Assembly (NCBI GenBank): GCA_020536535.1
Contig: JAHLWZ010000807.1
Span: forward strand, 1-64,000
From: Pelomyxa schiedti
Lineage: Eukaryota; Protista; Evosea
Direction: 5' to 3'
DNA length: 64,000 nucleotides
Shown here: piece after piece, positions 10,345 through 53,585 of the stretch
Layout of the letters: the number at the start of each line of letters is the position of its first letter
How positions within the stretch are numbered: the first letter of the stretch is position 1
Translations under genes and position numbers: made by a program
The notes under the pieces: generated by a model
What the model was told of the DNA's origin: nothing
The model's input: only the letters and a program-made list of their open reading frames with translations
Database searches by the model: none

Positions 10345-11383
10345 AGGAGCCAGAACCCTTTCTGAATTGGGCTACCAATGCAAAGCACTAGTAATTGGGC
10401 ACTATGGCCCTGACAGACGTTTCAGTGCTACAACTGCCATTTCTGACGTTTGCCTACTTCCCTTTTCGATATTTTTCCTTATTTTTAATTTTATTCATTT
10501 GCAATAGTTTCTGCGGCGCACGTGTAACTTCACAGTTGTGGAGGAACCAAGCTCAGTCACGTGGAAAGGCACCTTGGATCGATTCCTGGCTTTACCTGTC
10601 GATAATCTGGAGTCTGCAAAGGTATGTCCTGCAAAACTCTACATTTGTCTCACAAATGGCCAAGGTGGCAAGCATTTTTTATTTTACAGGAACTGTGAAA
10701 CAAGTTGGCAACCAACAGAACTTGTTGTTGGCTGATGACAGTGCATTTTCTCCCACAGACTACATGATGCCACTTAGCAATATTGTGTCCCGTATAGCCA
10801 TGGAATCTCATTTGATCATTGCCATAGTGGATGCAGTCCAATCGGAACACGTTTGGGGGCAGTGGGTGTGGAATGTTTACTTCCAACAGCCACTCATCTT
10901 GATAGGTACCTCAAGGAGCATTTTCTTACCTCAGAGGAGCTGAACAGTTAGCACGAGAACATCTCCCAACAGGGTATTACCTGGTGTTATCGATGAATCA
11001 AGGTTGGTTTTGTTCGGTGACTGTCATACTCAACAAACAGCAGGTTATGAGGTGTCTGAGAGCAAAAGAAAGTTCACCAGTTGTTTCAGAGATGGTACTT
11101 CTTTTTTTGTTATACTGTAAGATTTATTTATGAACACAGAGCTTTTGAGTGCAACGACAGGGACACCTTTTGATGACATTGTGGATCGCGCTGTGACTCA
11201 GGTTCAGTTAGGCACAAATGGATGCCTGTGTCCTTGTGTCAATGACACTGTAGGCACCACTTTCGCCCTTTTCTGACTTGAAAAAACAAGTTCCTCGATA
11301 ACAAAGCAACTTGGAGAACGCAACTGAATGCCTTCGAGTTCACTCTTCCTGTAAACAAAAAAAGCCCCAACCAACAACCAAAA

Positions 11384-18879: not shown

Positions 18880-19100
18880 GCAACACTTTATTGTAGTTGT
18901 TGTACAATGAGTGGAGACGGGGTAGGCGGACCCAACTTCGACGCCACTGCCTCGTGCGACGACATGTCTGACGACGTCAAGATGCCCATCGTGGCCGACG
19001 ACGACACGTCGGACGCGGAAAGGCCCCCGCCGCCCCGAGCCCCGGCGCCCCCCGCGTCCCGGCAGCAACACCCCCCTTCCTCCTCCTCCTCGTCGGGCTC

Positions 19101-19139
<39 letters not shown>

Positions 19140-19500
19140 CTCGTTTTCTTCCACGGCAGCCACGTACTCGCGGCGGCCGCGGCGTGTGATCTCGCCCACG
19201 ATGGGGCCCACGTCGCCCTCCGCCGCCCACCTAGCCAAGGAGCCGCCGCCGCCGCCCACGTCGGCGTCCCCCGCCATCGCCGCGTCCACAACAACCACAG
19301 GCACCCACGGGAAGACAGGGAGCACGACTCCCCGGGGAGCGCAGGGAGCCGGGGGCGGGGGGACAACCACAAGCACAAGCACAAGCACAAGCACAAGCAC
19401 AAGCACAAGCACAAGCACAAGCACAAGCACAAGCACAAGCGGCTTAGTAGTGGGGGAGGGGGGCGGGGAGGGAGGAGGAGGGTTCTGTGCTTCTGCGACG
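18880..19500. repeat. GC-rich coding-type low-complexity region containing (CAG)n, (GCACAA)n and poly-Ser/Pro/Gly codons.
   Basis: 'cagcagcagcag..' and 'agcacaagcacaagc..' runs are visible. Every frame gives a long ORF (poly-Q, (TS)n, poly-L/V, poly-C), which is a repeat artefact. Confidence 0.7.
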
Positions 19501-19611
19501 AAGCCAAAGTTACAGCAGGGGGCGATGTGCTGGGCGACTACTCGACCAGGGACGAGAAGGCCAAGTCGGAGGAAGCTTGTGGTCAGTTATCTTTCACAAT
19601 TGTAAAGAACG

Positions 19612-26066: not shown

Positions 26067-29000
26067 ATGAGCGGACGCGGACGCGGACGTGGACGTGGCG
26101 GCCGAGCAGGATCTCGTGGCGGGCGTGGCGGGCGCGGTGGGGCATCGTCCTCACGCGGGGGGTCGCGCGGTGCATCGCGTGGCGGGTCGAGGGGCGGTTT
26201 TGGCCCTCGTGGTGGAAGAGGTTTGTTTTGTTTCGTTCTGTTTCGTTTTTTTTCTTTTTCCCCCCTAGAAACTACTTGCTCACTCGTGTTTAACGTGTAG
26301 GGGGTGGTCCTGGTGGCGACCCTTTCTCTGGTCTCCCTGGTTTCGATGCGGCAAACCAATTGCAAAAGCTCAAGGATGTTGCTGTGTTCTCCAAGCTTTC
26401 TCCTAAAGAGCTTCGTGTAACAAAGAACGCGCTCCTTAATGTTGTATCAGCCTCTCTTGTCCGGGAGGTAATACTTTAAGGGTTTTTTTTTTGTTTTTTA
26501 ACTTTCTTTTTCCAGCCCAAATTTGATTCCCCTACCTCTGCAACTGTAAAGATAAATATCTTGGTTACACAGATTGCTTTTTACGATCCCGAGTTCATTT
26601 TGAAAGTTGCCCTTTACATGCGAACAGAACTCAATATTCGTTCCACCTCAAATTATGTGGTTTCCTTGGCTAGCAACATCAGACATGTAGGACCAAAGTT
26701 CGCTTTTTGCAAAATAATAAGCTGTTTAGTGTTCGCCCTTCCTTCGCAAATACTGCAAGGCCACAATCAGGCTACCCTCTGATTGGCTTGACATCGCTTC
26801 TACCTACCAGTGCCTCCCAGACAAGACTTTACGTGGGAATGGTTGGTTCCCCAATATCTTTTTGAGGTATTAAACCGCTGCAGCCCTTCCAACGGCTCTA
26901 CGAAAGGCCCTGGTGGATAAGTTCCCTGATTTTGATGTTTATCAACTTGGAAAATACAACAAAGAGAATTCCCTCAAGCGCAAGAAGAAGAAGCTCCGCT
27001 TAAAAGCCGAAAAGGAACCCACCAAGGCTGTATTCCAAGCTGGTATATTTTTCTTAATTTCAGGTTGGAAACTAAACTCTACACAGGTAAACCTCCTGTG
27101 ACGATTAAGCAACTTGTCCGACAGCTCCACATCTCTGAGCCTCCTTATCATGTTATGTGTATTTTGGGTAAGAAGTACCCAACAACAGAAGAAGAGTTCA
27201 AGAGGAATAGATTACCAGGCGAGTTCCAACCCAAACTTGCGGGAACTCGCATGAAATTCCCCGTACCAGAAACCTGGGAAACTCTGCTGTCTCAAAAAGG
27301 CAATAGGGTACAAATTCCAACAGACTAATGCGTATGAGTAACTTTTATTCAGTCCTCAACTTGGGAGGAGCTAATCGAGCACAAGAAGCTTCCGTTCATG
27401 GCAATGCTTCGAAACCTCCGCAATCTAATCTTCACTGGCGTTCACCCACGATACCACAAGTAAGTTAAAGCTTGAAACAAGAGAAACTAATTCCTTTACC
27501 AGGTGGGTAATGAACAAGCTTACTAATGAAGGGACAATTGCTAATAGCAAGCAATTCCCTTTCCGATTCTTCAGTGCTTATGAAGTCATTCCCAAAGATC
27601 TTAATGACTTTAATGAACAGCTGGATAAAATGAACAATCCTAAGAAAGCTGCTGCTAAGGATGGCGATGCAACTAAAATTCGAAGGAAGAAGAAAAACCC
27701 CATCGTCCCCACACACAGACCACAAGATGACCTCTTCGAGAAATACAGAGCTGCCCTCGACACAGCTGTGAAACATGCTACTACCCACAACGTAAAGCCC
27801 ATCCGGGGAAGCACGGTTGTTTTTTGTGACGGCAGTTCAGCGATGAGGGTATGCTTCTCCTTGTGGTTACATCAAATCCTAATTTAAACTATAGGAGGCA
27901 CAAAACCAGTGCGGAGTTGGCAAGTTCAATCAATTGAACCAATTGGGTATCCTCCTTGGCCTTATGTGCAAGTATGTTTGCGAAGACTGCGACTTCCGTA
28001 TCTTTGGTGGTGAAGTTGACGGTTCCCGCCACCGAAGCGTCACGTTGATGGAAGGAACAATTCTAGAAAACATGCGTATCGTCGAGGAATCCAGCAAAGC
28101 TTTTGAAAATGGTGCTGCACAATTCCCATTCGACTACTTTGAAGACCTCATCAAGAGGAAGGAAATAATCGACAATTTCATTGTCTTGTCTCACCACCTA
28201 ATTCTGCCAACCGAAGAAGGAAGTGGGCCAAATACCATCCCCAGCATTCTTCACAAATACCGGCAAGAAGTCAACCCAAGAATGCTATTCGTGAGTGTAG
28301 ATCTAAGTGGAAGAGGAAGCAATATCAGCCAGGGTGATGATGAACACCCCAATGATATCCTTGTCAGTGGTTTCTCGGATGCTATCCTGAGGTTCATAGC
28401 CGAAAGAGGTGATACCAACCAACTGCAGTACGTGGAGCACATTGACATTGCACACAACTTGGTTAAGAAATCTACTGTTGAGGCTGTTGTTTCTCCACTT
28501 TATGCACCCGAGCCCCCCAAAAACCCACTTGCAGCTCTAGAGGCTCCCAAGATTGAGGAGAAGGCTGAGCTGCCGGCTCCTATGAAGATTTTCACCACTG
28601 AAACGAAGTGGCGAACTTGCAGGGTTTTCATCTCTTCCACCTTCCTTGATATGCACGGAGAACGTGATATGCTCACACGGAAGGTTTTCCCAGAATTGAG
28701 GGACAGATGTATGTTTAGCATTGAATTTTCTGCAATCTCACTCATTTCCAGGCGCCAAGAGGCATATTCACCTTTATGAAGTAGATCTTCGGTGGGGTGT
28801 AACCGAGCACGAGACACAACAAGACAAAGGACTTGAACTGTGCTTGGATGAAGTCCAAAACTGTTCCCCGTTCTTTATTGGCTTGGTTGGCAACCGGTAC
28901 GGCTGGGTCCCCAACGAGTACACAGTCCCCGACCACGAGCGCTTTGATTGGGTCAAGTCATACCCGGTAGGCCGAAGTGTTACCGAGCTGGAAATGTACA

Positions 29001-32000
29001 GTGGAGCCATCAAGGATAGCAATCCTCATGCTTTCTTCTATTTCCGAAATCCTGCCCTCGTTTCTGAGATCCCTCAGTGAGTTACCCGCTTTCCTTTTCT
29101 GCTTCTTTAACGTCCCTCAGGGAACACCAGCGTGCCTTCGCCTCCGAATCACCTGAAGCAGAACACCGGATTAATGAACTCAAATCGATGATTCGTTCTG
29201 CTACAAACAATGTGGTTACATACAATGCCTCTTGGAGGGGTATTGTCGATGGCAAGCCTATGACGGGAAATCTTGCTGCACTGTGCAAAAGAATTACAGA
29301 AGACTTGTGGAAAAACATTACTGCGGTATTTTCTTTTTCATGAGTTTATTGAATATGACTTTTCACAGGTTTTCCCGGAGGAATCCGCTGAAGAGTGTGA
29401 CGCTCTTGATATTGAGCAGGCTTATCACGATGCCTTCGCTGAAGACAGACGGAAGTTGTTCGTTGGAAGAAAAGACGTGTTGACTGAATTGACCAAATGG
29501 TGCGATGAACCAGCTGCTGGCACTATTATTCTCACTGGGCCTCCTGGCTGTGGAAAATCTTCCATAGTTTCCGTCTTCGCCAAGCAATACCAGGTTTCAA
29601 CCAATCAACTTTCCAACCATTCTAACATACTTCAGGCCAGAAAACAGAAAGTTGTGGTACTTCCGTTCTTTGTTGGAGCTTCCCCAGGCTCCACTGACAT
29701 ACGACGCGTTCTCAAGAGTTTGTGCATGCATCTTGCAAAACGATTTGGAATTACAGATCCAATTCCAGAAGATTACAAATCTCTTCAGAAGGTAAGATAT
29801 TAGACATATTGGTTTTGAATATTAACACGGTTTTCCAGACCTTTGCGCGCTTCCTTGAGCAGGCGTCTTACATTGCTCGCCTCGTTCTCATTTTGGATGG
29901 TGTAGACCAATTGGACAAGACCAACCGCGCTCACTCCTTGGATTGGCTCCCTCTTGTCCCTCCAGCCAAAGTGATTTTAACTGCTGCTGAAGGCCCAGTA
30001 CTCAAAGCGTTGTCCCAGAGGACCTCTGCTCCAACCAACACTAATACCCTCCTGGCTCCAAAACTTGGTCCCATGCTCGGAAATACTCGTGAAATCGCGG
30101 TTGGGTCTCTCCCAATTCAAGACGCCAAGCAAGTTGTTCAAGGAGTTCTTGCCGAGTATCACAAAAAGTTGGAAGATGGCCCAATGAACGATCAGCTTCG
30201 CGTGTTGCTGAAGAAAGGCGATGCTGGCCGTCCTCTGTACTTGACTGTTGCCTGTGAGGAACTGCGAGTCTTTGGAGTTTTTGAACAGCTCACTGATAAG
30301 ATTAAGTCTCTTCCACCTTCCCTGCTCAAGTTGTACGACGAAGTTCTGGCACGTCTGGAGCTTGATCACGGGCATGCACTCGTTCCTCAAGCGTTATCTA
30401 TGTTGGCCTGCTCTCGTGGTGGACTGAGGGAAGACGAACTTTTGTGCACACTGAAACGAAACAATGACGAGGAAGCCCTTCCACGTGCAGTCTGGGCACC
30501 ATTGCGCCACGCCTTGAGGGTATTCGTGCGTGGTGATGGTGAAGAAACACTGGACTTTGTGCACGCACAATTTAAGACCGCTGTGGAGAAGAAATACCTC
30601 AATCCAGTGAAGCTTCATGGAATTCATTGCGCCCTTGCAGCTTACTTCATGGACAAGGTAGTTGTGAACAATTCTTCACTGTCTCTAACTGTTCCTCAGG
30701 CTGATCCCAAGCACAATGGAACATATCAGGGTGCGTCCCTGCGTGGTGTGTCCGAACTTGCGTACCATCTGACAATGGCGCAAATGTGGCCACAACTTAC
30801 TAATGTGCTCACATCACTTCATTACATTGAGAAGAAGTGCACCATGGGACTAGCTAGCGACCTTCTTGCCGATTACACATCAGCTGTTTTAATGGGTACT
30901 GAAGGCAGATCAAAGGAGTGGGCTGGCATGGATTTAGTGAAGCAGTTCTATAACTTCGTGTCGAACTCTATCCATGTCCTTTCGGCTCTCCCCCATCTCA
31001 CCTTCCAGCAAGTATGTTTTCGTTGGCTATGTGTTTCCTTATAGTTATTGTGCCTTTAGGCAGCAAATCAACCCGACGTATCTGCTGTTGCCAAGGCGGC
31101 TAAGCAGTTATGGGACGATCATTTGGAAAAGAGAGCTTGGATCAAGTGGGTCAACAAGCCCCAAGTTCTTGATCTATGCCGCTTGACTGTTTCTGCTATG
31201 ACCGACGGTGTTACAAGCACTGCTTTCTCTGCGGATGGGCAGCTCATTGTCTGTGCTTCTAGAGACTGTACTCTGAAAGTGTTTGAGGTGGCAACCGGAC
31301 GTGAACTGGCCACCCTCAAGTCACACTCAAGCCCAGTTATCGACTGCTGTTTCTCACCAGACGGAAAGTTCATTGCCTCTGCAGCTTGGGATAACACAGC
31401 TAAGGTTGTCTAACGTCCTGTCAAATTAGAACCTAACACTACCAGATCTGGGACACAACCAACTTCATCGTGGCACAAACGTTGACTGGTCACAATGAGC
31501 GGTTGTCTGCTGTTTGCTTCACTTCCGATAGTTCCAAGTATGTCCTTTTTTTTTTTTTTTTCTCTAACTTGGGTTCAGGGTTGTCACTGCAGCGTGGGAC
31601 AACACCATCCGTGTCTGGGATGCCACCATGGGATCCTTCCTCTTTGAACTGAAGGGACACAAAAGACCCATCAACTCATTGTCCCTTGTTCCAAATGGAA
31701 ATATGATTACCTCAGGTTCGTACTATTTCCACGATTAAAGTTGTAACAATTACACAGGATCTTGGGATGGTGAATTAATCGTGTGGAACTTGGATACAAA
31801 GGAAATGTTTAAGAAGCTCAAGGGACACGAGAAGTCCATCAAAACTTGCTCTTTCCATCCAAATGCCCGACAATTGATTTGCAGTTCCAAGGACGGAGCC
31901 ATTATGCTGTGGGACGCCCAAAGTGAAAAGAGAGTTGCACAGATTGGCTCTCACGCCCTCCCTACAAATTGCAGTGTTTACAGTGACATTGGAGATTATG

Positions 32001-34213
32001 TAGCAAGTGCTAGTGACGACGGCAGTGTGAAGGTGTGGGATGCTACCTTGGGTAAGGAGACCGCTACCGTGAAGCTTGAGGACAATAACATTGGTGCTAT
32101 GGCGCTTAGCCCGGATGAGCGATATTTGGCTGCTGCGCACTCTGATACAACCATTCAGGTTATTTCTCCTTGTTTGGTTGGTGAACTCACTCCGTTTTCA
32201 GATCTGGGACTTGACACTACTGAAGTCAGTCCGTACGCTGCGAAAACACACCCAGGGGGTTACTAGCCTGGGCTACAGACCTGACGGCCGCTTCATTTGC
32301 TGCGCCTCGGTCGACGCAACAATGAGTGTGTGGGATACTAAGTCTTGGGAATGTGTGCGTGTCTTGACTGAGCACACTGCCCCAGTCAACTGTGTCAGTT
32401 TTTCGCCAAATACACCCAGAATGGTGTCGGCTAGCGACGACTTCTCGTAAGCAGCACAGAACTCTACAAGTGATCTAACCTTTATTTAGATTGATCATGT
32501 GGGATACGAACACATGGAAGCCTGTAGCCACTCTCAAAGGACACACTGCAGTGGTGAAGTGCTGTGCCTATTCCCCTGATGGAAAACACATCGTCTCGAT
32601 TGCTCGGTATGAGAGCTCAAACATTCTTTCCTCCTTACTTCTTGCAGTGATGGCACAATCCGTGTCTGGCACGTTGAATCTGGGAAGTTGCTCCACACCA
32701 TGTCTGGCCACCTTGATTGGATCAACTACTGCGCTTGGTCTCCTGACTCCAAGAAGGTGGTGACTGGTGCTTGGGATTTCAACTGCAAAGTCTGGAGTAT
32801 GAAGAAAGGAAGAGAAGTAAAGGCTATGCAAGGCCACGGAGGATCAGTGGAGGTTTGCAAGTACAGCCCAGACGGAAAGGTGATTGTGACTGGCTCCTAT
32901 GACAAGTCGATGAAGGTGTGGGATGCCGAAGGGGGGACTGAAATTACTGCACTTAATGGCCACGGTGCTCGCATTAACTGCTTCGTATTCATCCGCGGTG
33001 GAAAGAGTTTGGTGAGTGCCGCCGATGATAATACACTGAAGGTTTGGGACCTCCTTGCATCGAGAGAGGTTGCCACACTTGTTGGACACAGTGCCTCAGT
33101 CCGCAAATGCTCGTTCTCACCAAAGTCTGAATTGATTGCTACTGCCTCCGATGATGGTACCGTGAAGGTGTGGGACTGGAAGCGTCAAGCGGCAGCTACC
33201 AAGACCGCGGAATCGATGAGACACGCTGGCTCCATAACAAGCTCATGCTTCTCTTTGGAGGGTGATTTCCTTTGCACCTGTGCTTCTGATGGCTCTATAA
33301 AACTCTGGAACACCCTGGTCACAGATGAAGCCTCCCTTGGAAAATGCGTTACTCTTGCCTTGGGTGGTGGGGAGACACCCGCTGTGCGATGTTGTGTCTT
33401 TGCTAAAGGAGGTGTTCTTGCTACGGGAAATGACCGAGGCCTTATTACTCTCTGGAATACCAAGGATTTCACGGTAGTTGGTACTCTTTCAGGCCACACT
33501 AACGCTGTGCGTGGGCTCGCCTTCACTCCTGACGGGAAGCACCTTGTGTCTGTTTCTTGGGATACCCGCGCCATAATCTGGAGTGTCGCAGGCCTAAATC
33601 AAGTTCGCGAAGTAACTGCCCACTCTGAGTGGTTGGAGTGTGTTGACATCAGTCCGGACGGCAGTCTCGTCGCCACAGGTTGATCTCTTTCCCGTGCGTT
33701 ACCAATGTCCTCACAATTTTCTTGTATAGGTGGTAGGGACAACAATGTTCTCCTGTGGGAATTTGCTACTGGTGAGGTTACTGGGTACCTCAATGGCCAC
33801 ACACAATGGGTCATGTCCCTGGCCTTAGGTGGAGATCATAAGATTGCAACTGCCTCCTACGATAACACTATGAGGTTCTGGGACCTTGCTGTTGCAGGCT
33901 ATGGCTCTGTTGCCTGTGAGGGTCACAAACAAGCAGTACGTTCCCGCATTTTGGCAGGCTTTTGTTTTAACTGTATTTGCAGGTTACGTGCGTGAGGTTC
34001 GCACCAAACGGCAGGCACCTTATCACATCGTCACTTGATCACACTATCAAGCTGTGGGATAGCAGCACACCAACACCAAAGCCCGTTCTGGAGTTCATGG
34101 CAGTTTCTCCATGCACAAGTGTTTCTATCTCGCTCAAGGCACAACTCCTGGCTTGTGGTGACCTGCTTGGCAACGTTTACCTCCTCAAGTACACACGCCC
34201 CGCAAGAAGCTAA
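26067..34213 (+). CDS. TEP1: TEP1-like (telomerase/vault-associated protein 1-like) multi-exon gene. The domain order is an N-terminal RGG box, a TROVE module with a vWA/MIDAS-like motif, a NACHT P-loop NTPase, and a long WD40 repeat array.
   Basis: The RGG box is '[22 protein letters not shown]..'. The TROVE-like block is '[23 protein letters not shown]'. The MIDAS-like motif is '[11 protein letters not shown]'. The NACHT Walker A is '[22 protein letters not shown]'. At least 15 WD40 units run from about 31120 to 34210 (for example '[21 protein letters not shown]' and '[11 protein letters not shown]'). The stop is at 34211-34213. Confidence 0.6.
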
Positions 34214-34302: not shown

Positions 34303-37300
34303 TCACAAAAAGTAGTCCCATAGCAGGAGCACGGCTTTGATCGATGGCCTTGAGGATGGGTTGCGTTCCAAGCACACCCTCACAATCTCATGTGCCAGTC
34401 GATGAAGGCGCCAGTGATGAAGGTTTTGTGTTAGTCTGCGAGGCGCTGTGGTTATGGGTGTGTTTTGTGGTTTTGGAGGAGGAATGGGGAATGGAGTGAT
34501 GCAACCCCTGAGGAGGTCCCGGCCGATAACCCACGGGCAAAGGCGGGGCAGGTGGGTGCTGTTATGGGATGTGTAGGGTGTGAAGAGGTATTTGTTGCTC
34601 CTGGTTGGTGTTTTTCCCGACGTGAGGTGGGAATATGGCTGTTTTAACGGGTACAACAGCAGGGATGCTGTGATTCCTTTGGACAATGTCAATCAACGAG
34701 CTGGGAATTAGAGAGATATGGGAGTTAGGTTTACCAAAGCCCCAGACATCGGCCTTTGTGTCAAACGTCAGTCCGGAAAGAACCTCCGGGGCACAGAAGT
34801 TCACATCCTCTGGCGAAATTGGCGTTGAAGCCGGCATACAGTAGGATCCAAATAAGAGGGTAACCGGTGTGTGGGGAGCCTTGATCTGAATTCCCTTTGA
34901 CGAAAAGAAAGGATGATTGTGAACGAACGAACCTTTGCCCAAGGACCGGGTCCAGATTCATCCAGTGACAGAACAATGATGTTATCTGTTTGCATTAAGT
35001 TTTAGTTGAAGGAGGTGTCATGTCATGCACATACCAGGCGAAATTTTGGTGTGCACATTTGGGGAGTTCGGGCCATTGTGAAGGCGATCTAATGCCTGTG
35101 CCACATCCTTCAGAATCTTCAACCTCGAACTGATTGGGAGAACTCGGTCGAGGATGGATGTAGTCCCATTCCCTTTTCTGATGAGTGAAGTCAGAAGCTC
35201 ACCCAAGCTGATGCATTGGTCAATATTGATGTATGACCCAATAATTGCCCCTATTGCAGGCGGGATGATGGGTCTTGGTGATCCTGGTATTTTTATCTCT
35301 GATTCAGAGGGAGTTGTATCCCGATGAAGTGCCACAATGTTGGGGGCAACTGATACAAGATCAACTTCACAATTTCCATTTTCACACGTCAACTTGTGTT
35401 GCCCATTTTTCACTGCATTGAGGATGTGCTCCTTGTGGAAGTAAAACAAGTTGGATGGCAATGCGGATGGTTTGTCATTGTCAGTCCACTTATCCGGTGA
35501 AGAATTGCCCTGCATCAGGCAATGGGGACAGGGGAAGAGCTCAATAACCCCAGGGAATGGTGCCCCACTTTCTTCCTCAAATCGAGACTGACTCAGATTG
35601 TAAAGAGTTCCCATAAGGGATGCCCAGAGGTGTTCTTGCTGTGGGTGTTCGTTGCACTCTGATCGCAGGTAAATCGAAACCATGTCATCTTGGAATGTAA
35701 TGAACAATAGGACTTGTTGTTCTGATCCTCCATGTGAGCAAGAGTATGAGAACGAGAGTGCATCCCTCCAACAGAACTTGATAACCCACCCACTAGAGAG
35801 AAGAGACCTTGAAATACTTGAAATGGCTTTGAAGAACAAGTCATGAGGCAACAATGGGAGTTTGATCGATCTCCCATTCGATGTGACCGGAGCAGTGAGG
35901 GAAATGTCAGCGTGAAATTGTTTTAGTATAGCAGGGGGGATAGTGTGAACCAGAGGGAGAAAGGAGCGGTGTCCCTTGACGATATGAGAGAAATTTGACA
36001 GGGTCTTGTGAACATCACCAAACTCAACCAAAAGTGACCCTAGCTCATTCATTGAGGGGTTTTTTCTGTTTTGTGGCTCTTGTCTATCCGTTATTATGAA
36101 CTTCTGGAGCTGAGCCAAAAAGGAGTAAGGTTCGACAATGACCAATTCAGGTAGATGTATTGGTACCGCGTGTGACAAGAGCCAAAAAGGATACCTGAAG
36201 TGAACAATGGTCCCAATGTCCGCCAAGAAGTTTGCACACAGCTCAATCTCCAGTGCTTTCGACATACCACACCTCCTGGCCAGCTTACAAAATTGAGTCC
36301 AGGTAAGTAAGAACCTTTTGTCCCTACGTTGTATAACTTTCTTGTTCAGTGCAATCCAAGTCTGTGGAACAGACTGGGGAATTCCATCACATATTTCACC
36401 TTGAATAAAGTCAAGGAGTGAATATACACATCTGGGTTCTTCTGCTCTATGAGATTTTTCATACTTCCATCCCTTTCCATTGCTGAGTTGCAGCAGGAAT
36501 GCAATAGGAATGTCTTCCAAAATAAAAATTCGATTCATGAGGTCGGTGACATTAGGGGCATTTGGGTCAATTCCCTCCATGTGGGTTCCAACAGGGATTA
36601 TGCTCCTCCATGCCTTGTCACCGCGGCTTCTCGCAAATGAGATTTCATTCACCCAACGATAAACTGCCATGGAGGGTTCCTTCATCTGCAACGCCTTGGA
36701 TACATCAAAAACGAGGATGATTACGGACCTGCTGAGGAGGAACCATTGGTGAAGCGGTGACAGAGAATCCCCTCCTGTGTGTTTTATGAGTATCCCATGA
36801 AGCAAAAAGGAGCCATACCAAGGTCCCAAATAGTCATATTGTGCCCAATTGTAGTGTTACGTGTATGATGCACAGCAATAGCGTGCGTGTGCTTTGTGGT
36901 AAGTGTCAGCTTTTTTGTACTCTCCATGAACTTCAAAAGTGTTGTCTTCCCAACACCAGTGTCTCCCACAATCACAAGTTTATGTGTGTTTTTCTGAATC
37001 TCGTTTTGTCTTTGGTTCACTGTGTATTCCTTTTTTTCATTTCCCAATCTCACATTGGGCATTTCAACCAACCACTTGGGAATCTTTTTAAGCTTGTTAT
37101 TGGAGAGGTTGAGCGTCCTGCACGTCAAAGGCCTCAATGATTCGGGAACAGACTCCAATTTTAAGTCAGAAAGGTCAACGTTCTCAGATTCTGTGAGAGA
37201 CCGAGAAAGGCACACAACACCAAGAGCAGCCTCGTTCCTTGTTTTCACCCAGGTCCTCAGTGCCATTGACACTGTGAAGAATGGGAACTGCGGTCGGTAG

Positions 37301-38248
37301 TCGTGCACTAGTTGCATGATCATGTGGGCTGTGATGACATCAGCACATGTGATATCTAGAATGGCCGGTATCACAGGAACCAGAACTGGTTGAGATACAG
37401 GCAGTGTAATGTCACTGAAGTGGCAAAAGGTTATTGGCGTTTGGCACAGTGGGACCTCTGGGGATTTCGCTATTACTGACAGAAGGGTGTCCAGAGTTCC
37501 CAGTTTTGGTGTCCATTTCAACATTTTGTAAGCACAAAACTAGTGTATGTCAGAGTATTTTTACAAAATAAGACCCGGACATTAAAAGCCATATGAATGG
37601 GCAGCAGTGTGTGCTTCACTCTATCTGTTTCTGGAAACTGCGCCATTGTGTCACTGCAGTCAAGAAGTAGGGTTACACATGATAGTGGAACCTTAGCAGA
37701 TGCTTCTGGGAACCTGCTTCTTGACATACCGATCAGATCATGCAGTATCCTGCTTATCGCTCCACAGGAATCCCTGTACTCACCAGTGTGAAGGATCAGC
37801 AAGACTTTTTTACCAACCCTGACAGGTTTGGTGAGTGGGACAGAGAAAGTTGATTTTTTCCCCATTGGAAACTGGGACAGCCATACCCATAGCAAAGTTT
37901 ATTTGCTATAACTGTGGAGTCACAGTCCCCAGAGCATCGGTAGAAGAAACACATCTGTTCCGGGTGATTACAGTCCCCGGGATCCCACAATGTCAGCTCG
38001 TTACACGTCTGTGCCATGCTAGACATCACGACTTTGTTGTCAGAAATCTCTTTCTCTGTATGTAGTGACCTTCCCCCCTCGGATTCGGTCTCAACAGGTC
38101 GAGCCATTCTATTGAGCTTGATCCATTTGATGTTAATGTTGATGCTTGCTTGTAGTTCGCCGGCACTGGCTACAGCAGTGAACACAGAGTCGACACAAGG
38201 CTTGGAACCAACAACGAAACACAGCCGATTCTTCAATGCACCAGCCAT
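34303..38248 (-). CDS. ROCO-family protein (LRR, Roc GTPase, COR and a C-terminal kinase-like domain), multi-exon. The kinase catalytic motifs appear degenerate.
   Basis: The LRR block is 'LNLSNNKLKKIPKWL'. The Roc P-loop is 'KLVIVGDTGVGKTTLLKFM' (about 36950). The COR-sized 603-aa exon spans 35018-36829. The kinase-like tail has 'NVHTKISPG' in the HRD position, then 'APEVLSG..DVWGFG' and 'ERNPSSRPS'. Confidence 0.5.
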
Positions 38249-44369: not shown

Positions 44370-46497
44370 CTAATCATCACTTGGAAGAAGCGCTATTGTT
44401 ACGGAGCCATTGTCGCGCCTGGACGCTAGCCTCACGCTCCAACCAGGGCCCCCGGAGTTGTAGGCAAAAGACCCGCCCCCGCCGCCGGCCGTGGTGCCAG
44501 AGTGACCATCAGATGAACCAGGGGCGCCGCCACTGAAGCCGCCGCCGCCGCCGTAGTACCCCTCGGCGCTCCCGCCGCCGCCGCCGAACCCCCCATTCCC
44601 ACCACAGTCGCATGCCACTCCCCCCTTGCCACCATTTAAGGGCGAGGTGCACGGATATGGCGGAAGTCGATCGGCGGCGCGGGTTACACAGCGAGAGCCG
44701 TTTGACGACCACCCAGCTCCGCCACCGCCTGAAACGATAATGGCTGTGGTGGCACACCTTCCTCCTCCGCCTCCTCCGCCGTTTGTCCCTCCACGTGAAC
44801 AGGAATCCAACACTGAGTTACCATCTGGGGAGAGACTAGCAGACTTCCCCAAATACTTGGGCCCAAGTGTTGCCCCACCACCGCCACCGCCTGCACAAAT
44901 CAGAATCTTGCCATTTGTAGTGATTGGTGAGCCAGATAGAGTAACACCATCCTCCCACACAAATGTCCCACCTCCGCCTCCAGCTGCCGGGGACCCACTT
45001 CTGCCAACCTGTCCCACAAGTATGTTGAGTGGTTGTCCTTCCCTAATTTCACAGATCGTTGTCACAATGGCACCCAGACCCCCGTCAGACCCTCCGCCAC
45101 TGGCACCAACTGCAGTGACTCTGTATTTTCCGGTCACAAGTGCCACCCAACGTTGTATCCCTCTTGAAAGTGTGACATTCCCCGGAAGTGGAGCGTAATC
45201 GTCTGTGGGAGCGATGTCGTATTCCCCATTTAGGCTGGTGAACCTGACTCGCGTGGGCCTCAGCATATCGATTTGTTTTTGTAAATGATCTGCGTCGAGG
45301 AGGACCTTCTCCAGCTCTTGCATTCTCGACGTGAGTTCCAGCATTCTGGTGTGACAGCTTGCTTCCATCTCCTGCAACATATTGGCTTGGAGACTAAGCA
45401 TCTCTTTCATTGCCTTGTTCTCAGAAACCAGGAATGTCAGAGCCGGACTCATTTTCACAAGAACGCAAGACTGGATGTGTTCAGTGAGGCCACCCCTTTG
45501 CCCACTCCAGGTGCAGAACTGGGCACAACACTGAACTATCACTTTGGGACACGTCGAAGACTTATGTTCAGTCAGGTGCCTTGGTTTCACTTTTTCCCCA
45601 CATCCCTCAGGGCAATCTTTTTTCAGGCATTAAATGGCAGATATGCAAAAAGTGTTACCGATTGGGCAATCCAATTGTGTGTGAGACATGTCCTTTATTA
45701 ACTTCCTTGCAACCGATGCATTGCATCGAGTGCAAATCACAGGTACACTCAAGCAATCAGTTTGTTCGTGAGCAGCTTGATTTTTTGGTTGTACTTTCAT
45801 GCCACATAGGTTGGGACAATCTGCACCAGTGTTTAAATTAAAGTTTACATGCTACGTTACTATTGGTGTAATAGTACCGACTGGGCAGTCCAGCTTCTTG
45901 TGAGATAGGTCTTTCATTGCACGTCGCGGGACAAATTCATGGCAAAGTTCACAAGCAACGAGCACGCTGAGGCACTCAGTTTTTTCGTGCTGGGCTTGAT
46001 CCACAGGTGCCACTTTTACCCCACACTCTTTTGGGCAATCTGTGGGTATTAGATGACAATTTCGTGAAAAGCATGTTGTACAACCAACTGGGCACTGCGA
46101 GATGTGGGAGAGCAGAGACTCCCGAAGGATTATTTCATTGCACACGGTACAGTGCACTTCAATCGCAGATAGTTTTGCTATAATAGGCTTTGCTGTCACT
46201 GGTTTCAGTCTTCCCTCCAGTTCCTCCTCACATGTTGGACACTTTGTCCCGGTTAGTTTCGCGTCTAAGGAGAAAGGAAAGTGGAGCAAATTATCGTCAA
46301 ATTGTTCAGAGGGAAAAGGTTGATCGGTGATTTCTCACATTCTTTCCACTGTTGCAACAAGCCTCACACAACCAAGAACCACAGTCGTGCACCATGGGTT
46401 GATACGCGGGATGCTCGCACACAACGCAATTGTGCCTGACATCCCATTTCCGCAGTGTCCCTTTGGCGTATTTGAACCACGATCCTGGCTGTGTCAC
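44370..46497 (-). CDS. RING/TRAF-type zinc-finger protein with a coiled coil and a C-terminal glycine-rich, ALK-GRD-like domain in place of a MATH domain. Multi-exon.
   Basis: The N-terminal Cys/His-rich exon is 'CVVCEHP..HDCGSWLCEACC'. The TRAF-type zinc fingers are 'CPTCEEEL..HCTVCNEII..HISQCPVGCTTCF..' and 'CPKVIVQC..CTWSG..LTEHIQSC'. The coiled coil is 'MLQEMEASCHTRMLELTSRMQELEKVLLDADHLQKQIDMLR'. The Gly-rich tail has 'GGGGG' blocks punctuated by F/Y/W residues. Confidence 0.5.
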
Positions 46498-46769
46498 AAC
46501 ATGTCAGAAAAGACAACAAGTTGGGCGAGGGTGCGGTACTTTTTGAGTTGCGAGACAGGAACTGCCTGGCCCCGTTTGGCCCGCCATCAAAATCTAACTC
46601 GGAATGTTCAATTCGAGTGGAAAGTTGCCACATTGACAAGCAAAAGTGAAAGTTAGCTCAGATGCTTGGGCTTGGGGACTCTGGCTAAGTGAATCAGAGA
46701 GGCAGACGATACAAACAATTGATGATATATTCCAGATACGAAGAAACAAAAACGAAGAAGGCGGTTGCG

Positions 46770-49708
46770 ATGACGAAACGTCGCGAGTGGGAGTTCGAAG
46801 TTCTGCTGGGGGCGCTGATGACAATTTGGCTCTCGTGCGTTTTGTGTCGCGGCGCCTCCCTGTGCGTGAGCCCGACGGCCGTTGATGGCGGGGACGGCAG
46901 CGGCGCGGACTGGTCGAACCCAATTGTGGGATTCCCGATGAAGCCGGCGAGGGCTAGGGGCAACGTGTACCTTTTCGCAGCTGGCGAGTACAGATTCAAG
47001 GCTGGAATTCAGCTGGATGACGTGGAAAACGAATCTCAATTTGTGGAATTTGTAAAGGCAACTGCTCTGAACCACGGCCCTGGTTTGTAAATAAATGGCT
47101 ATCTGACTTTGTTTTTTTTAGCTTGACTGACCTAGGGGACAGATACCGGGTGGGAGGATTCTCTGTCAGATGGACAAGTTGTCTTTTTGGGAAATTCAAG
47201 TGCCTCTGGATTTGTATTTCTGCTTCGACGCAGTTTTTATTCATTTGATGGAGTAACCCCATTTGGCATTAAGCTGGGGTTTGACTGCTCCACGGTGCAC
47301 AATGACGAAGAAATTTCTGATTTCCTTATGCAGTCTTTTGACTATAGCACAGATTTCAACTCGGTTCACTTCAGAAATATAGAGTTTTCCATGTGTGGCC
47401 CCCACGCATATTTTGCAAGTGAGGATGCTGTGTACATGTACGCACAGCAAGGGATACATGACTTTGTTATGATAAACTGCTGGATTCACGACTCTCCACG
47501 GTTTACTGCCCCCTTGATTTGGTTGATCTTTAATTGATCTATTTTTAGAAGTGCATTGCTTTTACTGGAGGCCACTGACATAGTTATTGACCACTTACTT
47601 GTCGAGAGAAACGGGGGCAATGAAGAAAGTAGTGGGCTGCGCTTCGGAGCTGTCTCTAATGTATCTATCACAAATTCTGTGTTGCAAGACGTCCAGTCTG
47701 TGAACATTGTATTTCAGCAGTCAAGTTCTGATATTGTGGTAGAAAACAATCTCTTCATCAAGACTTCTGAATATCTCCCTTGGGCTTCAGTGGACACCAC
47801 TGTCATTGGAGCTCAAGATGCAGTGGATAATATAGAGATTGTGGGAAACATGTTCCTCAATGTCCATGGTCTTGACTGTGGAATAGAGTTGAGTGATGCT
47901 AGTGACGTTGTTGTAAATAATAACGTGTGGGCTTACTGTGTAGCAAACATCATCAATTTTGCTCTCCCAAGTGTGTCTGCCACCTTGCATATTTCATTCC
48001 TGATGGATTCACAGGCGGCACAAGGGATTACAACTCTTTTTGCAACAATTATCGGGATTTGAGCCCTGGAGCACAGCTTCTTGATGATAAGTCGGCCGAA
48101 GGAGAGAACCATGGATCTAGCTGTGGTAATAACTGGACCAAGCAGCTGTTTGTGCGCTACTCTCCCGGAATGCGGTTCCAGGATTCTGACTTACACCCCG
48201 TGGAAGTGGGTGATTCGGCTTTATGGCTCAATACACACACGAAGGACTTCTTTGGTACCCCACGTCAAAATCCTGGTCCACGAGGAGCCTTTGTTATGGC
48301 TGACCCATGCGCCTCCAGTGAAGTCTGTGGGGCTAGCACTCCTGAATGCTGGATGCCCCCAGTCTGTGATTCTTCCACTGGCTCTTGTATCTCCGATCCA
48401 ATTCCTTCGGCAGATGGAATGTTGTGTGGCGATAGTCCATCAGAGTTCACAGCTTGTATAGAAGGAGAGTGCCAATCCGGTGTTTGCCTGGGTGCCCCAT
48501 CAGATAGATACGCACAGTTTTTTGACTGTGGTGTGGTTGGAAATGGGGATCTTTGCCACTTTGAGTGCATTTCTGATGGTTCTGCTGGTACTGTTGAATG
48601 TAGTGACTCTGAGGTATTTGCCACTGACTTTTTTTTTTGATGTATTCTCACGTTGTTCAGTGGCTTCCGGCAAGTATAAGTTGCACAAGCCCTTGTGAAG
48701 CGACTCCTTCTATTCCACATGCATCTCTACGTAGTTGCTCAAGAATACGTGAATTTACTACTTGTGTATACAATTGTGATAGTTCTTCTACACAACTCGT
48801 GTTCAAGTGTGAAGATGGTGTCTGGCTTGACGAGACCTACGGGGCCACATGCTCCGAGTGGTGCTGTGATGACAACCCTTCATTTGCTGGGTATACAGTC
48901 ACAAATGAATGCTCCGGCAGCGCCGAGGATGATTACTGCACTTCAATCAGCTGCACATATTCTGGTACTATTACAAGTTACCCTCGCTGCCTATCATCTG
49001 GAGAATGGTCAGAACCTTCTGGATGCTTGGAATCCGAACCCAATTGCGGCATCTCTCACTGTACTGTATGTAAACTATAAACACATTAATGCCTCCACAT
49101 TTTCCATGCTCCCGTGCTCAATTTTACCAAGGTTTGTAGCACTTCAACAACCTGCAAGGAGTGTGATCAAGGCTGGACCGGGAGCCAATGCACTGAGGCA
49201 TGCACAATTACAAACTGTGAGGAATGTTCCAGCCACTGGACATGTTCTGAATGCTCATATGGAACACTTCCAAATTCGGAATCCACGGTCTGTGCTTCCT
49301 CCTGTAATACTATTGATCACTGCCTCGTATGCAATGACGGCGCTTGTGCTCAGGTAATTTTTTGACTTTTGCCTGAATTCCCTTGGAATTTCCACCCTAC
49401 CTTTTTCGTTTCTACTAACGCGCACCCGACGGCAGTGCGAGGATGGGTATACACCGCCAGATTGCACAGTGCCATCTTGCTCAATTGTGGGATGTGAACG
49501 GTGCAGCCAGAGTGGGCTGTGTGTGCTGTGTTCGGACCCATCCCATAATCCATCTGATGGGGGCACAGTGTGCACCACAGCCAGTGGTTCGACACCTGGA
49601 AGTGGGAGCACCAGTGATGCTCCGCCACTGAGCTCCCATTATATATTGCTGACTGCAATACTTCTGCTACTAGTGGTTCCCACCAACAATCTTGTTATCA
49701 TGTCTTGA
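46770..49708 (+). CDS. Secreted or surface protein, multi-exon. It has a signal peptide, a right-handed parallel beta-helix (pectin-lyase-fold-like) region, a Cys-rich EGF/furin-like repeat region and a C-terminal hydrophobic tail (possible GPI anchor or TM segment).
   Basis: The signal peptide is 'LLGALMTIWLSCVLCRGASL'. The beta-helix start is 'VSPTAVDGGDGSGADWSNPI..GNVYLFAAGEYR'. The PbH1-like repeats include 'VSNVSITNSVLQDVQSVNIVF..DIVVENNLF'. The Cys-rich modules include 'CTEACTITNCEECSSHWTCSEC'. The C-terminus is 'ILLTAILLLLVVPTNNLVIMS*'. Confidence 0.5.
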
Positions 49709-50208: not shown

Positions 50209-53200
50209 TTGCATCCTCCTCCGAAAAACATACTCCTGCTCTCGGGTAAAAAAAGCATAGTTTTTCCCGCAAGTTGCATTATGGGATACAGGGGGTTGGT
50301 CTGTTGTAATTCTCTCTGTACAGTGTATCGTTTGACTTTCCAAATGAGCTTGCTGTTAGTTTTATGGGACCCTTTGGAGCCTGGAACACCACCCCCTTGT
50401 GGAAGTTCCACTTTCCTCATCAACCACCAATCTTCCAGAACCGTACACTGCATGGGGAACCGAAACACTACAACAGGTCACCTGACAAGTGAACACACAG
50501 CGAGGGTGGTTGGATATGAAGAGTTCCAAAAGGCACTGCAAAGCCGGAACGAGTTCTTCACCAGGCTTGGGCAGTCTGCCACCGTAGAAGACGTCCAAAA
50601 GTCACCCGTTAGCGTTGTTGTGGCCAAAAACTTCCGACTTGTGAGGCCAATTTCACACGGTTGCAACGGTACAACCCCCAAAAAGCACACAGAAAAAGGT
50701 TTGTGACTGACTAACAGGGATTGTGTATGAGGTGAAGTGCATTGGAGAGGGACACCCCAAGTTGTTCATGGACCAGTCCTATGTTCTCAAGGCTCCTTTC
50801 AATATCAGTTTCACCACGACAAGTGTTCAGACCGCTTTTGAGGTATCTATTATGTAAAAAAAATACATAATATAATAACTCTTATTCTTTTAAAAGAATA
50901 CAATACAACGACTACTTTCCTTTTTTTTCCCTCCCCCACTTTTGTTTCTTATGCATTCAAGAATGAGTATCTTGTATCTTCAACATTGGAGCCACACCCA
51001 AATATCAATCGATATTTCTGTCACTTCACAGACCGCATCCCACAAGAGTATTACAATCACCTCCCGCCCGTTGCCAAGGAGCTGGCATTTGACAAAGTGC
51101 AGAAGAGGATGCACGCGTGCATGTGGGTGGTCTTTGAGCATCATTCAGAGACCTTGGAGAAATTTTTAAGCAGCATCAACACCCCTATAACACCATGGCC
51201 CATTGTTCACAAGTATTCAAGGGATATTTGCGCGGCTCTGGTGCATCTTTTTTTGAATCACACTATCCACTTTGACCTCAAACTGGACAACATCGTTATA
51301 TCTTCCGTGCGTTGCCTTCCCAGACACTAACAACAATATTTACAATCCCGCACAACTTAACTTAGTCAAGATACTTACAAACAACAGAACAAAGAACAGG
51401 CAATCCTGATTGACCTTGGGTGTGCAAAAAAATTCTCAAGGACAAGAAAGGCATTTGAGATTGATACAGTGTCTCTCATTTCAATAACAGGAAATACAAG
51501 TCACAGAGCACCTGAAATCCTCAACGGCACCGCACGATACAGGCAGGACCCAGACGCCATACCAACGTGGTGCTGTGACAAGGTATTAAGTCCAGATATT
51601 TCATTTTTTTCGACTTTCACCCCCTGAAAACAGCAAGCATCATTTGAACTTGGGTGCATTCTGTTTGAACTCTCCATGTGTGGAAAACACCCTCTCCCAG
51701 GGTACCCTGGGGGTTATGGTCCAGGTGGAAAGGTCACATTTTCATTTGAGAGGGAGGAACTGTTCCCTATGAAACCGACAGATTTCCCAAAGGAGTTCTG
51801 CAACGTCGTCCGTTCGTTACTGCAGTGTGACCCTGAAAAAAGGATGCCTCTGCTGGAGGCATCGGAGGTGCTGTCCAATCTTGAATCACCATGCCCTTCT
51901 GATCTGCTCTCATTTTACACTGGTTTTGTGCCTCTATCGAATGATGCAGGTTGACTTTACAGGTTGAACTGAGTAAATTTACACTGACCCACAAAAACAC
52001 ACAAACAACAGTAATGTTGACAACCAAGGCAACATGTCAGATTCTTTGTGGTGCCACAGAAGACTCGCTTGACACCCTCCATAAAGCCCTGGAAATTGAA
52101 CCGTTGTTTTCGCCTGCTTTGCTGCTTTTGCATTATCTTCATTCTTACCAGCAGAAGTTGGACCATAGCTACGAACAAGCAATTCTCACAGCACTCACAG
52201 GCAGGATGGCCTCATTTACAACCACAGACGTGGAATTTACAAGGGCCATCATCAGCAGGCGGCACAGCGCCACACTCCCTGAATTGGTTTTGGCAGCACT
52301 ATGGACAAAACACATTTCCCACAAGGTTGACGAGTACCGCACCCTCGCAAAGTTGCTTTTGAAGAAGATACCAGAATCAGAGGGTCAGTCTCAACAGCAA
52401 TCAATGGAGTTGAATTACGTTTTCTTGAAGAAGGTTATTGCCACACGAAACGAGACGATGTTGGGTGCACTTCTGCAGTTGGAAGTGGGAAACATTGACT
52501 TTGCCCTCGCGCTTGTGGCCAGTGCATCCTTACAATTCCAATGTGAAATGATGAACTGTCCCAGTGGTGTGTGAATGTCTCTTCCTTTCTTCTCATTCAA
52601 CTATATGAAAGGGGTAGCACAACACTGTGAGTACCTTCCCGCTTTGTTGTTCCTTTATTGTCTCCGTTGTGTTATCAATGACCACTTGTCACTTCAACAA
52701 CACATACCAACTAGCCTGTCAGAGGCTTTTTCTCAGGCGGTCTCCTCCACACTAGAGTCAATGAGAGCTCTGTGCCGGCGGGTTTTGAATGACACAACTA
52801 ACGTTGGTGGGGCAGAGTTCTCTGACCTTGCCACAACAGTAGCATTGAGAGCCAATGTTGATAACCAAACATCAGCCATGATGAGTTCGGAGCAGTCATG
52901 GTCCTGCATGTACTTTGTTGCTTTGTGGAGGACTTTCTGTTCTTCCCATATTCAATGTAAAGGTGCGGCACACATCTGGGAGGAACTGAGTTCAATGACT
53001 CCAGCCTCATCTCAGCCCCACAACATGATGACTGGCAGCGTGGGTGCTTCCTCCCTCACCCGCCTTGGTCTCTGCTATGAACTTGGTGTTGGTGGTGTTC
53101 ACAAGGACTTCAACAAGGCCGTGGAACTGTACCGGAGGGCCGCTGATTCCGGCGACGCCACTGCACTCTGCGTACTTGTTGGTGTGTGTCATCACTGGAA

Positions 53201-53585
53201 CGACGAATTCGGGCTGTACGTGAGGGCTGCTGGTGGCATCTACACGCAAGCAGCGTGTCATTGCCATGGCACCCCCCAAGCAGTGACCCTCCTCCAGCAG
53301 GCCTCTGATGCCGGTATTGCGCAGGCGATGAACAACCTTGCTGCATGTTATGAACGCGGATTAGGCGTTGGCAGGGACATCCCCAAGGCTGTGACACTGT
53401 ACCAGGGGGCTGCTAGCGCAGGTCACGCCGTGGCCATGTACAACCTGGGCGCGTTCTACTTCTATGGCACTGGTGTTGTCAAGGATATGGACAAGGCAGT
53501 GTCACTGTGGCGCAGGGCTGCTCAGCTAGGCAATGAAGAGGCCATTGCTAAACTGAGGGATAACGGGAAAACAGAAAGTGAGTAA
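50209..53585 (+). CDS. Protein kinase fused to a TPR-like helical region and Sel1-like repeats, multi-exon. The 5' start is uncertain. Proposed introns are 51928-51962 (35 nt) and 52567-52611 (45 nt).
   Basis: The kinase blocks are 'VYEVKCIGEGHPKLF', 'HPNINRYF', 'IHFDLKLDNIVI', 'ILIDLGCAK', 'APE' and 'LGCILFELSMCGKHPLPG'. The Sel1-like repeats include 'AVELYRRAADSGDATA', 'AQAMNNLAACYERGLGVGRDIPKAVTLYQGAASAGHAVAMYNLGAFYFYGTGVVKDMDKAVSLWRRAAQLGNEEA'. The ORFs at 51951 and 52575 are in the same frame and separated only by a TGA that lies inside a GT..AG 45-mer. Confidence 0.45.

Follow-up and report, generated by a model that had tools for sequence, protein, structure and literature searches.

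A predicted TRAF-like RING protein of Pelomyxa schiedti with an ALK/LTK-type TNF-like/glycine-rich domain at its C-terminus

The gene Pelo_11004 lies on the minus strand of the 64-kb window analysed here, which covers positions 1 to 64,000 of contig JAHLWZ010000807.1 from the anaerobic archamoebid Pelomyxa schiedti (Amoebozoa). Its predicted product joins a TRAF6-like N-terminal half, composed of a RING, zinc fingers of the TRAF type and a coiled coil, to a C-terminal TNF-like/glycine-rich (TG) domain of the type found in the receptors ALK and LTK. We interpret the protein as a putative TRAF-like modular RING E3 ligase or adaptor in which TG would serve as the target-binding head, and from sequence, structural models and analogy with known systems we assign this interpretation a probability of about 0.6. 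The ALK/LTK TG module, whose structure was solved in 2021, has a known function only as the extracellular cytokine-binding unit of metazoan receptor kinases. In Pelo_11004 it would represent a new class of head on a known type of RING E3/adaptor scaffold, and apparently the first intracellular context for this domain.

An earlier note, made from the sequence of this stretch alone, had called the combination previously undescribed. For the literature this appears to hold: full-text searches turned up no account of a PF12810/ALK-type head on a TRAF- or TRIM-type protein, and neither TRAF nor glycine-rich proteins are mentioned in the P. schiedti genome paper (PMC8887013). The protein, however, is already deposited publicly as hypothetical, one paralogue (P0001) carries the automated name "TNF receptor-associated factor 5", and the architecture is found in at least seven P. 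schiedti genes. The standard Pfam scan yields nothing for Pelo_11004 at E<=1e-3, which explains the absence of an annotation.

The C-terminal TG domain

The TG domain (Table 1) extends over about 290 amino acids (aa), instead of the ~270 given in the earlier note, and ends three residues before the C-terminus of the protein. It contains 27.6% glycine, with seven runs of at least four Gly. The glycine-rich motifs quoted in that note can be found in the sequence, except for one that was slightly misquoted and actually reads GGNGGFGGGGGSAEGYYGGGGGFSGG.

A phmmer search of the single sequence against all PDB sequences ranked SCD-2, the ALK homologue of C. elegans (7lir, E=1e-3), and human ALK first (to E=0.1), and the alignment to both runs through the non-glycine strands (GIQxW...Y.I.A.GA.GG...ILVGQ.G). 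A search for TG homologues retrieved 107 proteins, many of them with PF12810. The profile of an 83-sequence alignment (A1), which includes Pelo_11004, matched ALK (5e-44), LTK (1e-39) and SCD-2 (9e-21) in the PDB over the entire TG region. An AlphaFold model of the TG head built on the same alignment reached a predicted local distance difference test (pLDDT) value of 90 and a predicted template modelling score (pTM) of 0.91. Comparison of this model with the PDB by Foldseek, which the earlier note had proposed for the ALK glycine-rich domain, gave 21 significant matches, all of them TG domains of ALK, LTK or SCD-2 (E=4e-14 to 3e-9; template modelling scores 0.51-0.66); TNF ligands ranked next with E >1. 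The ALK TG structures were released in the PDB in late 2021 and the AlphaFold2 weights were trained on older entries, so that the model should not merely reproduce a template seen in training.

Profile and predicted fold place the TG head in the ALK/LTK-type PF12810 family, and the likeness to ALK suggested in the earlier note is strongly supported. A simple low-complexity glycine-rich protein of the cell-wall, loricrin or RNA-binding type is ruled out by the globular fold, which is predicted with high confidence. PF12810 itself did not match the single Pelo_11004 sequence at any threshold in hmmscan. In close homologues it scored 46.7 bits (P0005) and 24.3 bits against a cut-off of 24.5 (P0003), and the missing match is a sensitivity limit of a glycine-biased query, not evidence against homology. 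The TG paralogues of Pelomyxa do not vary in their beta-strands and Gly blocks, and the loops that connect these are rich in insertions and deletions, a pattern that fits TG as a recognition head.

The TRAF-like N-terminal half

The predicted RING of Pelo_11004 has eight candidate zinc ligands and a Ser at the position of the canonical C-x-H histidine. This position is occupied by N, S or A in most aligned relatives, and a His two residues ahead of the third Cys (His50) is conserved in 24 of 26. The match of the single sequence to the Pfam RING models is weak (E=0.069). The fold model as well as the family profile match the RINGs of TRAF6, TRAF5, LNX, RNF125 and TRIM21. The predicted RING is a non-canonical variant with eight ligand candidates in altered order.

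The zinc fingers following the RING score 23.6-24.7 bits with Pfam zf-TRAF (PF02176; cut-off 27). The same model reaches up to 116.9 bits in relatives, and 15 of the 30 aligned relatives match it at E<=1e-4 (best 6.6e-34). With the single sequence, the top PDB match of the N-terminal half was a TRAF4 zinc finger (2eod, E=0.0016). The profile of the 30 relatives (alignment A2) matched best to the TRAF6 RING-zinc-finger structures 5vo0 (E=8e-15) and 3hcs (E=4.5e-12), in each case covering the RING and zinc fingers 1-3. An AlphaFold model of aa 1-347 (pLDDT 92.4) retrieved 3hcs, 5vo0 and the TRAF5/TRAF6 RING heterodimer 7l3l as top Foldseek matches (E=7e-9 to 4e-7). The segment assigned to the coiled coil is free of Pro and Gly and shows heptad periodicity with a hydrophobic occupancy of 0.63-0.88 at positions a and d; in the model, the 67 residues after the fingers (aa 278-344) form one continuous helix with pLDDT >90. 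The N-terminal half thus resembles TRAF6 in profile and predicted fold, which supports the TRAF-type assignment that the earlier note had based on the Cys/His-rich exon, the tandem fingers and the coiled coil. The absence of a MATH domain reported there was borne out as well: Pfam scans of Pelo_11004 and its relatives, including all P. schiedti scaffold proteins scanned, gave no MATH match.

The variant RING raises the question of catalysis. Passages of PMC10181826 and PMC5702613 describe that TRAF6 requires its RING and zinc fingers for Ubc13-dependent formation of lysine 63 (K63)-linked chains. Pelo_11004 might instead be a non-catalytic adaptor or scaffold, in which the RING does not transfer ubiquitin and the fingers and coiled coil bridge a TG-bound partner. 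Precedents for an adaptor role are TRAF1 and TRAF3, and the replacement of the canonical His by Ser or Asn in Pelo_11004 and most relatives, together with the weak Pfam match, would fit this explanation. However, the conservation of all eight ligand candidates, including the compensating His50, the similarity of the predicted fold to catalytically active RINGs (TRAF6-Ubc13 complexes 5vo0 and 3hcu) and the retained arrangement of RING and first zinc finger that TRAF6 needs for activity speak against it. We consider a purely non-catalytic role unlikely, though it deserves to be taken seriously.

Paralogues and distribution of TG heads

An exhaustive search of 1.84 billion representative sequences retrieved 1434 proteins at E<=1e-3. 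Among those retrieved, five matched both halves of the protein, all from P. schiedti: Pelo_11004 itself (P0111), P0001, P0108, P0112 and P0116. Several paralogues, located on different contigs, keep the domain order at 42-55% identity. P0112 and P0116 are deposited as "Phosphatidylinositol 3-kinase VPS34" and "RNA-binding protein 25" (RBM25), and each ends in a zf-TRAF/coiled-coil/TG unit. From their sequences these two gene models are obviously chimeric and look like merged neighbours, which makes the automated names of this family in the P. schiedti genome unreliable.

TG also occurs on a second type of scaffold. P0122 (Pelo_8136/12192) combines B-boxes (PF00643, E=5e-11) and a coiled coil with a TG head and is TRIM-like, and P0119 (Pelo_6054) has a similar Cys/His-rich N-terminus and a TG head; P0002 and P0003 are coiled-coil/TG fragments. 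By domain composition, at least seven genes of P. schiedti have this architecture, at least five of them TRAF-like and two B-box/TRIM-like, of which P0119 is assigned without a Pfam match.

Further P. schiedti proteins carry other C-terminal heads on the TRAF-like scaffold: SPRY (P0109, P0110), pentapeptide repeats alone or together with SPRY (P0117, P0133, P0143, P0158), leucine-rich repeats (LRR) with a dual-specificity phosphatase (P0113), a thioesterase (P0125), Neuralized (P0120) and, in P0209 (KAH3742527.1, Pelo_16082), a Phage Tail Collar domain (PF07484; 48.9 bits against a cut-off of 24). The predicted tail-collar domain of P0209 is a second phage-fibre-type binding domain on the TRAF-finger scaffold family of this species. 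Since TG is found on both TRAF-like and TRIM-like scaffolds, and SPRY on TRAF-like ones, heads are shuffled between the two scaffold types. Swapped C-termini on sister scaffolds are the pattern expected of an interchangeable recognition head, as a portion of PMC3503706 sets out for the TRIM classes.

These heads also bear on the possibility that TG is a structural or self-association element, whose polyglycine-II lattice would drive higher-order assembly or bind Gly-rich segments. In favour of such a role, the lattice is a rigid scaffold and the Gly blocks are the most conserved portion of TG. On the other hand, the characterised modules all bind partners (ALK and LTK bind ALKAL; the tips of phage Pam3 gp24 and S16 gp38 bind the host), TG takes the slot that is held in paralogues by recognition domains of the SPRY, Kelch, LRR or pentapeptide type, and oligomerisation would already be supplied by the coiled coil. 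Self-association as the main role of TG seems improbable to us.

The earlier note had asked for orthologs with the same fusion. The fusion was found in other P. schiedti proteins. A profile built on the TG domains of Pelomyxa (A4) matched 2046 proteins at E<=1e-10, and RING, zf-TRAF and B-box annotations were absent from the best 120 outside Pelomyxa; over the searches made, none of the best 120-150 matches from outside Pelomyxa combined TG with RING, zf-TRAF or B-box. The closest TG domains outside Pelomyxa form part of a giant secreted surface protein with CHU_C Ig-like domains and a type IX secretion system (T9SS) sorting tail (P0118), of P0124, which resembles a tail fibre and has an endosialidase-chaperone domain, of Trichomonas TVAG_338590 and of cnidarian EGF- or PAN-containing "ALK-like" proteins. 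The closest relatives of the TG head outside Pelomyxa show 36-48% identity. Most relatives are metagenome proteins, and the alignment is biased by glycine.

A EukProt Trinity transcript (P0324) encodes a complete open reading frame (ORF) of 456 aa with a helical N-terminus of ~170 aa and no evident signal peptide, followed by TG. Judged by its sequence, non-secreted TG proteins may exist in another eukaryote.

Gene structure of Pelo_11004

The gene model was obtained by joining Cys/His-rich ORFs at GT-AG sites and refined against the exhaustive protein search. The spliced product of six exons (Table 1) has 641 aa and is 100% identical to KAH3757183.1, "hypothetical protein Pelo_11004", which is encoded on a 130-kb contig. 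The five introns measure 51, 97, 45, 57 and 42 nucleotides (nt) and all have GT-AG ends. The last three are in phase 1, each splitting a repeated CP[VI]/DCP junction (intron at the slash) between zinc fingers. Such short canonical introns are consistent with the published genome statistics of P. schiedti (7.4 introns per gene, 98% GT-AG; PMC8887013). The splice choices agree with the paralogue P0001, which supports the junction SGKN/CPTC between exons 2 and 3, so that an alternative junction ("model B") was rejected.

The earlier note had placed the gene end at 46497. The coding sequence begins 90 nt further upstream and not with the GTG at 46497; a small first exon of 48 nt (MAGQTGPGSSCLATQK) had been missed. 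The 45-nt intron (46084-46040) within the zinc-finger region had been read through, and a 656-aa model reading through this intron was rejected after the exact match of the 641-aa version to P0111.

Table 1. Position of Pelo_11004, its predicted domains and other features of the window
Feature	Position (nt)	Strand	Residues (aa)	Remarks
Pelo_11004, whole coding region	44370..46587	-		spliced translation = P0111 / KAH3757183.1
Pelo_11004, exons (n=6)	46587-46540, 46488-46339, 46241-46085, 46039-45878, 45820-45659, 45616-44370	-		stop codon TAG 44372-44370
RING-like zinc-binding domain	46230..46428	-	37-70	CVVCEHPAYQPMVHDCGSWLCEACCNSGKNCPTC; split by intron 2; from fold model and family profile
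TRAF-type zinc-finger array	45465..46151	-	97-277	~7 C-x2-4-C-x11-12-H-x3-5-C units; regular-expression map
Coiled coil	45258..45443	-	285-346	positional equivalent of TRAF-N; heptad pattern, predicted helix
TG module	44382..45251	-	349-638	TNF-like beta-sandwich with embedded polyglycine (glycine-rich) domain; homologous to the ALK/LTK ligand-binding region
Tandem paralogous ORF 1	5775-7958	+		727 aa
Tandem paralogous ORF 2	8161-10344	+		727 aa
Tandem paralogous ORF 3	11311-13764	+		817 aa
Low-complexity region	18888-19605	both		microsatellite-like
STAND-NTPase-like gene	27934-33683	+		
ROCO-type protein	35018-37524	-		
Divergent neighbour of Pelo_11004	~46770-48640	+		
Sel1-repeat protein	52575-53585	+		PF08238, 107 bits

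In the ORF listing, three shorter Cys/His-rich ORFs lie upstream of a 406-codon ORF (45590-44370, minus strand). This uninterrupted ORF holds the final TRAF-type finger, the coiled coil and the entire glycine-rich domain, which is accordingly part of the same gene, as the earlier note had assumed, and not a separate gene or untranslated region. Since a single exon spans the last finger to TG, the fusion is independent of splice prediction and not an artefact of the gene model. The predicted architecture is also excluded as a product of chance, because paralogues are 42-55% identical over both halves and the profile and fold matches are highly significant. No second local copy of the protein was detected by tblastn in the window, and a local duplication was rejected. 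A Pro-rich antisense ORF of 190 codons (44626-45198, plus strand) is not a gene; it is the CCN mirror of the GGN glycine codons in the TG exon.

The genome was derived from single-cell genomics with automated annotation (PMC8887013), and with chimeric models among the paralogues (P0112, P0116) one might suspect that the gene is an artefact of annotation or assembly, a pseudogene in decay, or a recent fusion in a draft genome that is not expressed. We regard this as very unlikely in view of the junction of finger, coiled coil and TG inside one intact ORF and the canonical ends of all five introns. The domain order is moreover conserved in several paralogues on different contigs, which at their degree of divergence calls for purifying selection to have acted on the fused product over a long time.

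Subcellular location

Neither a signal peptide nor a transmembrane (TM) segment, the absence of which the earlier note had wanted checked, was found in the Pelo_11004 sequence. The deposited N-terminus (MAGQTGPGSS...) is not hydrophobic, and with a maximum Kyte-Doolittle mean of 1.27 over 19 residues no TM segment is expected. There is little space for a missed leader exon, because the divergent neighbour gene on the plus strand begins ~180 nt upstream, with its ATG at ~46770. Only one Cys in TG is invariant among the Pelomyxa paralogues, and a conserved disulphide pattern is therefore not evident. Because secretion signals and a disulphide pattern are lacking and the RING/TRAF-finger array is zinc-dependent, the protein can reasonably be placed, on its sequence features, in the cytosol or nucleus.

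That Pelo_11004 is secreted or surface-exposed like almost all TG/PF12810 proteins, with its N-terminal region as an extracellular Cys-rich module, is hardly credible: nearly all other family members found do have signal peptides, T9SS sorting tails or EGF/PAN domains, but Pelo_11004 has no hydrophobic leader, TM segment or conserved TG disulphide pattern, and its TRAF6-like half is a zinc-dependent architecture known from the cytosol and nucleus.

Proposed mode of action

If Pelo_11004 is a TRAF-like E3 ligase or adaptor, its coiled coil would oligomerise the protein and display several TG heads, comparable to the TRAF stalk (TRAF-N/TRAF-C) that presents MATH domains and to the Pam3 fibre that presents a TNF-like/glycine-rich tip. 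The TG head would bind a target, and the RING-zinc-finger end would recruit an E2 and ubiquitinate the bound target or its neighbours.

Several points weigh against this interpretation. On the single Pelo_11004 sequence zf-TRAF and PF12810 both remain below the Pfam threshold, so that the domains are assigned from predicted structure and from profiles built on relatives. Ligase activity is uncertain because the C-x-H histidine of canonical RINGs is missing, and with P0112 and P0116 as chimeric predictions the census of the TG family is approximate. Oligomeric state, ligase activity, the role of TG as recognition element and what it recognises are features that we infer. The TG of ALK is not known to trimerise, and its ligand is a metazoan cytokine for which we would expect no counterpart in P. 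schiedti.

As described in parts of PMC10181826, the Dictyostelium TRAF-like E3 TrafE acts in cell-autonomous antibacterial defence, and according to sections of PMC10579272, P. schiedti hosts obligate prokaryotic endosymbionts. Together with the lineage-specific expansion with swapped heads, a pattern of immune type, this makes it an attractive hypothesis that TG heads recognise features of microbes or of damaged compartments. The tip of the Pam3 gp24 fibre, a TNF-like/glycine-rich domain, recognises its host (PMC9608196). Given such phage-tip analogues and the endosymbionts, as far as sections of PMC10579272 describe them, the TG family is a candidate for recognition of prokaryotes inside a eukaryotic cell.

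A more far-reaching and speculative idea, to which we give low odds, is that the TG heads and the tail-collar domain of Pelo_16082 are laterally captured bacterial or phage adhesins that were placed on TRAF- and TRIM-like scaffolds and became cytosolic sensors, marking prokaryotic surface structures with ubiquitin. Targets would then be prey, invaders or the obligate endosymbionts, methanogen as well as bacterial. Cell-autonomous immunity or symbiont control would have made new use of a receptor-binding domain of the phage type, and the ligand-binding module of ALK and LTK would descend from a microbial adhesin fold.

The architecture would show TG to be a portable binding domain, able to fill the slot of SPRY or, in canonical TRAFs, of MATH. 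A lineage-specific multigene family in an amoebozoan would offer a handle on TG ligands outside animals and on the origin of the ALK ligand-binding region. The finding, which rests on domain architecture in one draft genome, would be unexpected to those who study the structure of ALK or the evolution of TRAF and TRIM proteins.

Neighbouring genes in the window

The product of the divergent neighbour of Pelo_11004 starts with a hydrophobic stretch resembling a signal peptide, which is followed by a right-handed beta-helix region (PF13229, at 24.4 bits slightly under the cut-off) and then by a Cys-rich stretch; from these features it is probably a secreted or surface protein. The STAND-NTPase-like gene begins with DUF5920/DUF4062, and its further domains are an APAF-1 helical domain (PF17908, 33.5 bits) and a propeller of WD40 repeats, an Apaf-1/NWD-type architecture that is often tied to immunity or cell death. 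The ROCO-type protein matches the Roc GTPase (PF08477, 25.4 vs 27 bits) and COR-A (PF16095, 27.6 vs 35.3 bits) models below threshold. Among the three tandem paralogous ORFs, the third shows a weak C-terminal ADP-ribosyltransferase match below threshold (PF01129, 20.7 vs 22.3 bits), and the second ends instead in a low-complexity Lys/Ser-rich tail. Depending on the frame, the low-complexity region translates to (LV)n, (TS)n, polyQ or polyC.

Comparison with known protein families

The TG fold of the Pelo_11004 C-terminus is that of ALK and LTK's "TG" supradomain, TNF-like plus glycine-rich (PF12810, ALK_LTK_GRD). In contrast to these receptors, Pelo_11004 has no signal peptide, EGF-like module, TM helix or kinase by Pfam and hydropathy. 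Its TG is apparently cytosolic and lies C-terminal to an E3-type scaffold, and ALKAL-type ligands are not expected in an amoebozoan. Pelo_11004 is in no sense an ALK-type receptor.

Outside ALK, the nearest structural analogues of the domain are the TNF-like/polyglycine domains of phage fibre tips (Pam3 gp24, Bxb1 gp33, S16 gp38). Their similarity to the Pelo_11004 TG is far weaker than that of ALK, and they are virion components that lack RING and zinc-finger domains and are extracellular relative to their target. The closest TG relatives outside Pelomyxa are secreted PF12810 glycine-rich proteins of Bacteroidota (T9SS), Trichomonas (TVAG_338590) and cnidarians (ALK-like), which differ from Pelo_11004 by signal peptides, by Ig-like, fn3, PAN or EGF modules, or by T9SS tails.

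With the TRAF family (TRAF6-type; Dictyostelium TrafA-E) the protein shares the order of predicted RING, TRAF-type fingers, coiled coil and C-terminal beta-sandwich head, and like the Dictyostelium TRAF-like E3s, as passages of PMC10181826 present them, it is amoebozoan. It differs from TRAF6 in the shifted His ligand of its RING and in a higher number of zinc-finger units (~7), and it has TG where TRAF-C/MATH stands in the TRAF family. Since this defining domain is absent, Pelo_11004 is TRAF-like but not a canonical TRAF.

From TRIM proteins (RING-B-box-coiled-coil) it is distinguished by TRAF-type fingers in place of a B-box, for which Pfam gave no match in Pelo_11004, and a TG head is not known among the C-terminal domains of TRIMs. 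In both, the principle appears to be that a coiled coil oligomerises and displays a C-terminal recognition domain that can be exchanged, as seen also in the P. schiedti paralogues that place SPRY on a TRAF-like scaffold (P0109, P0110) or join B-boxes and coiled coil to TG (P0122).

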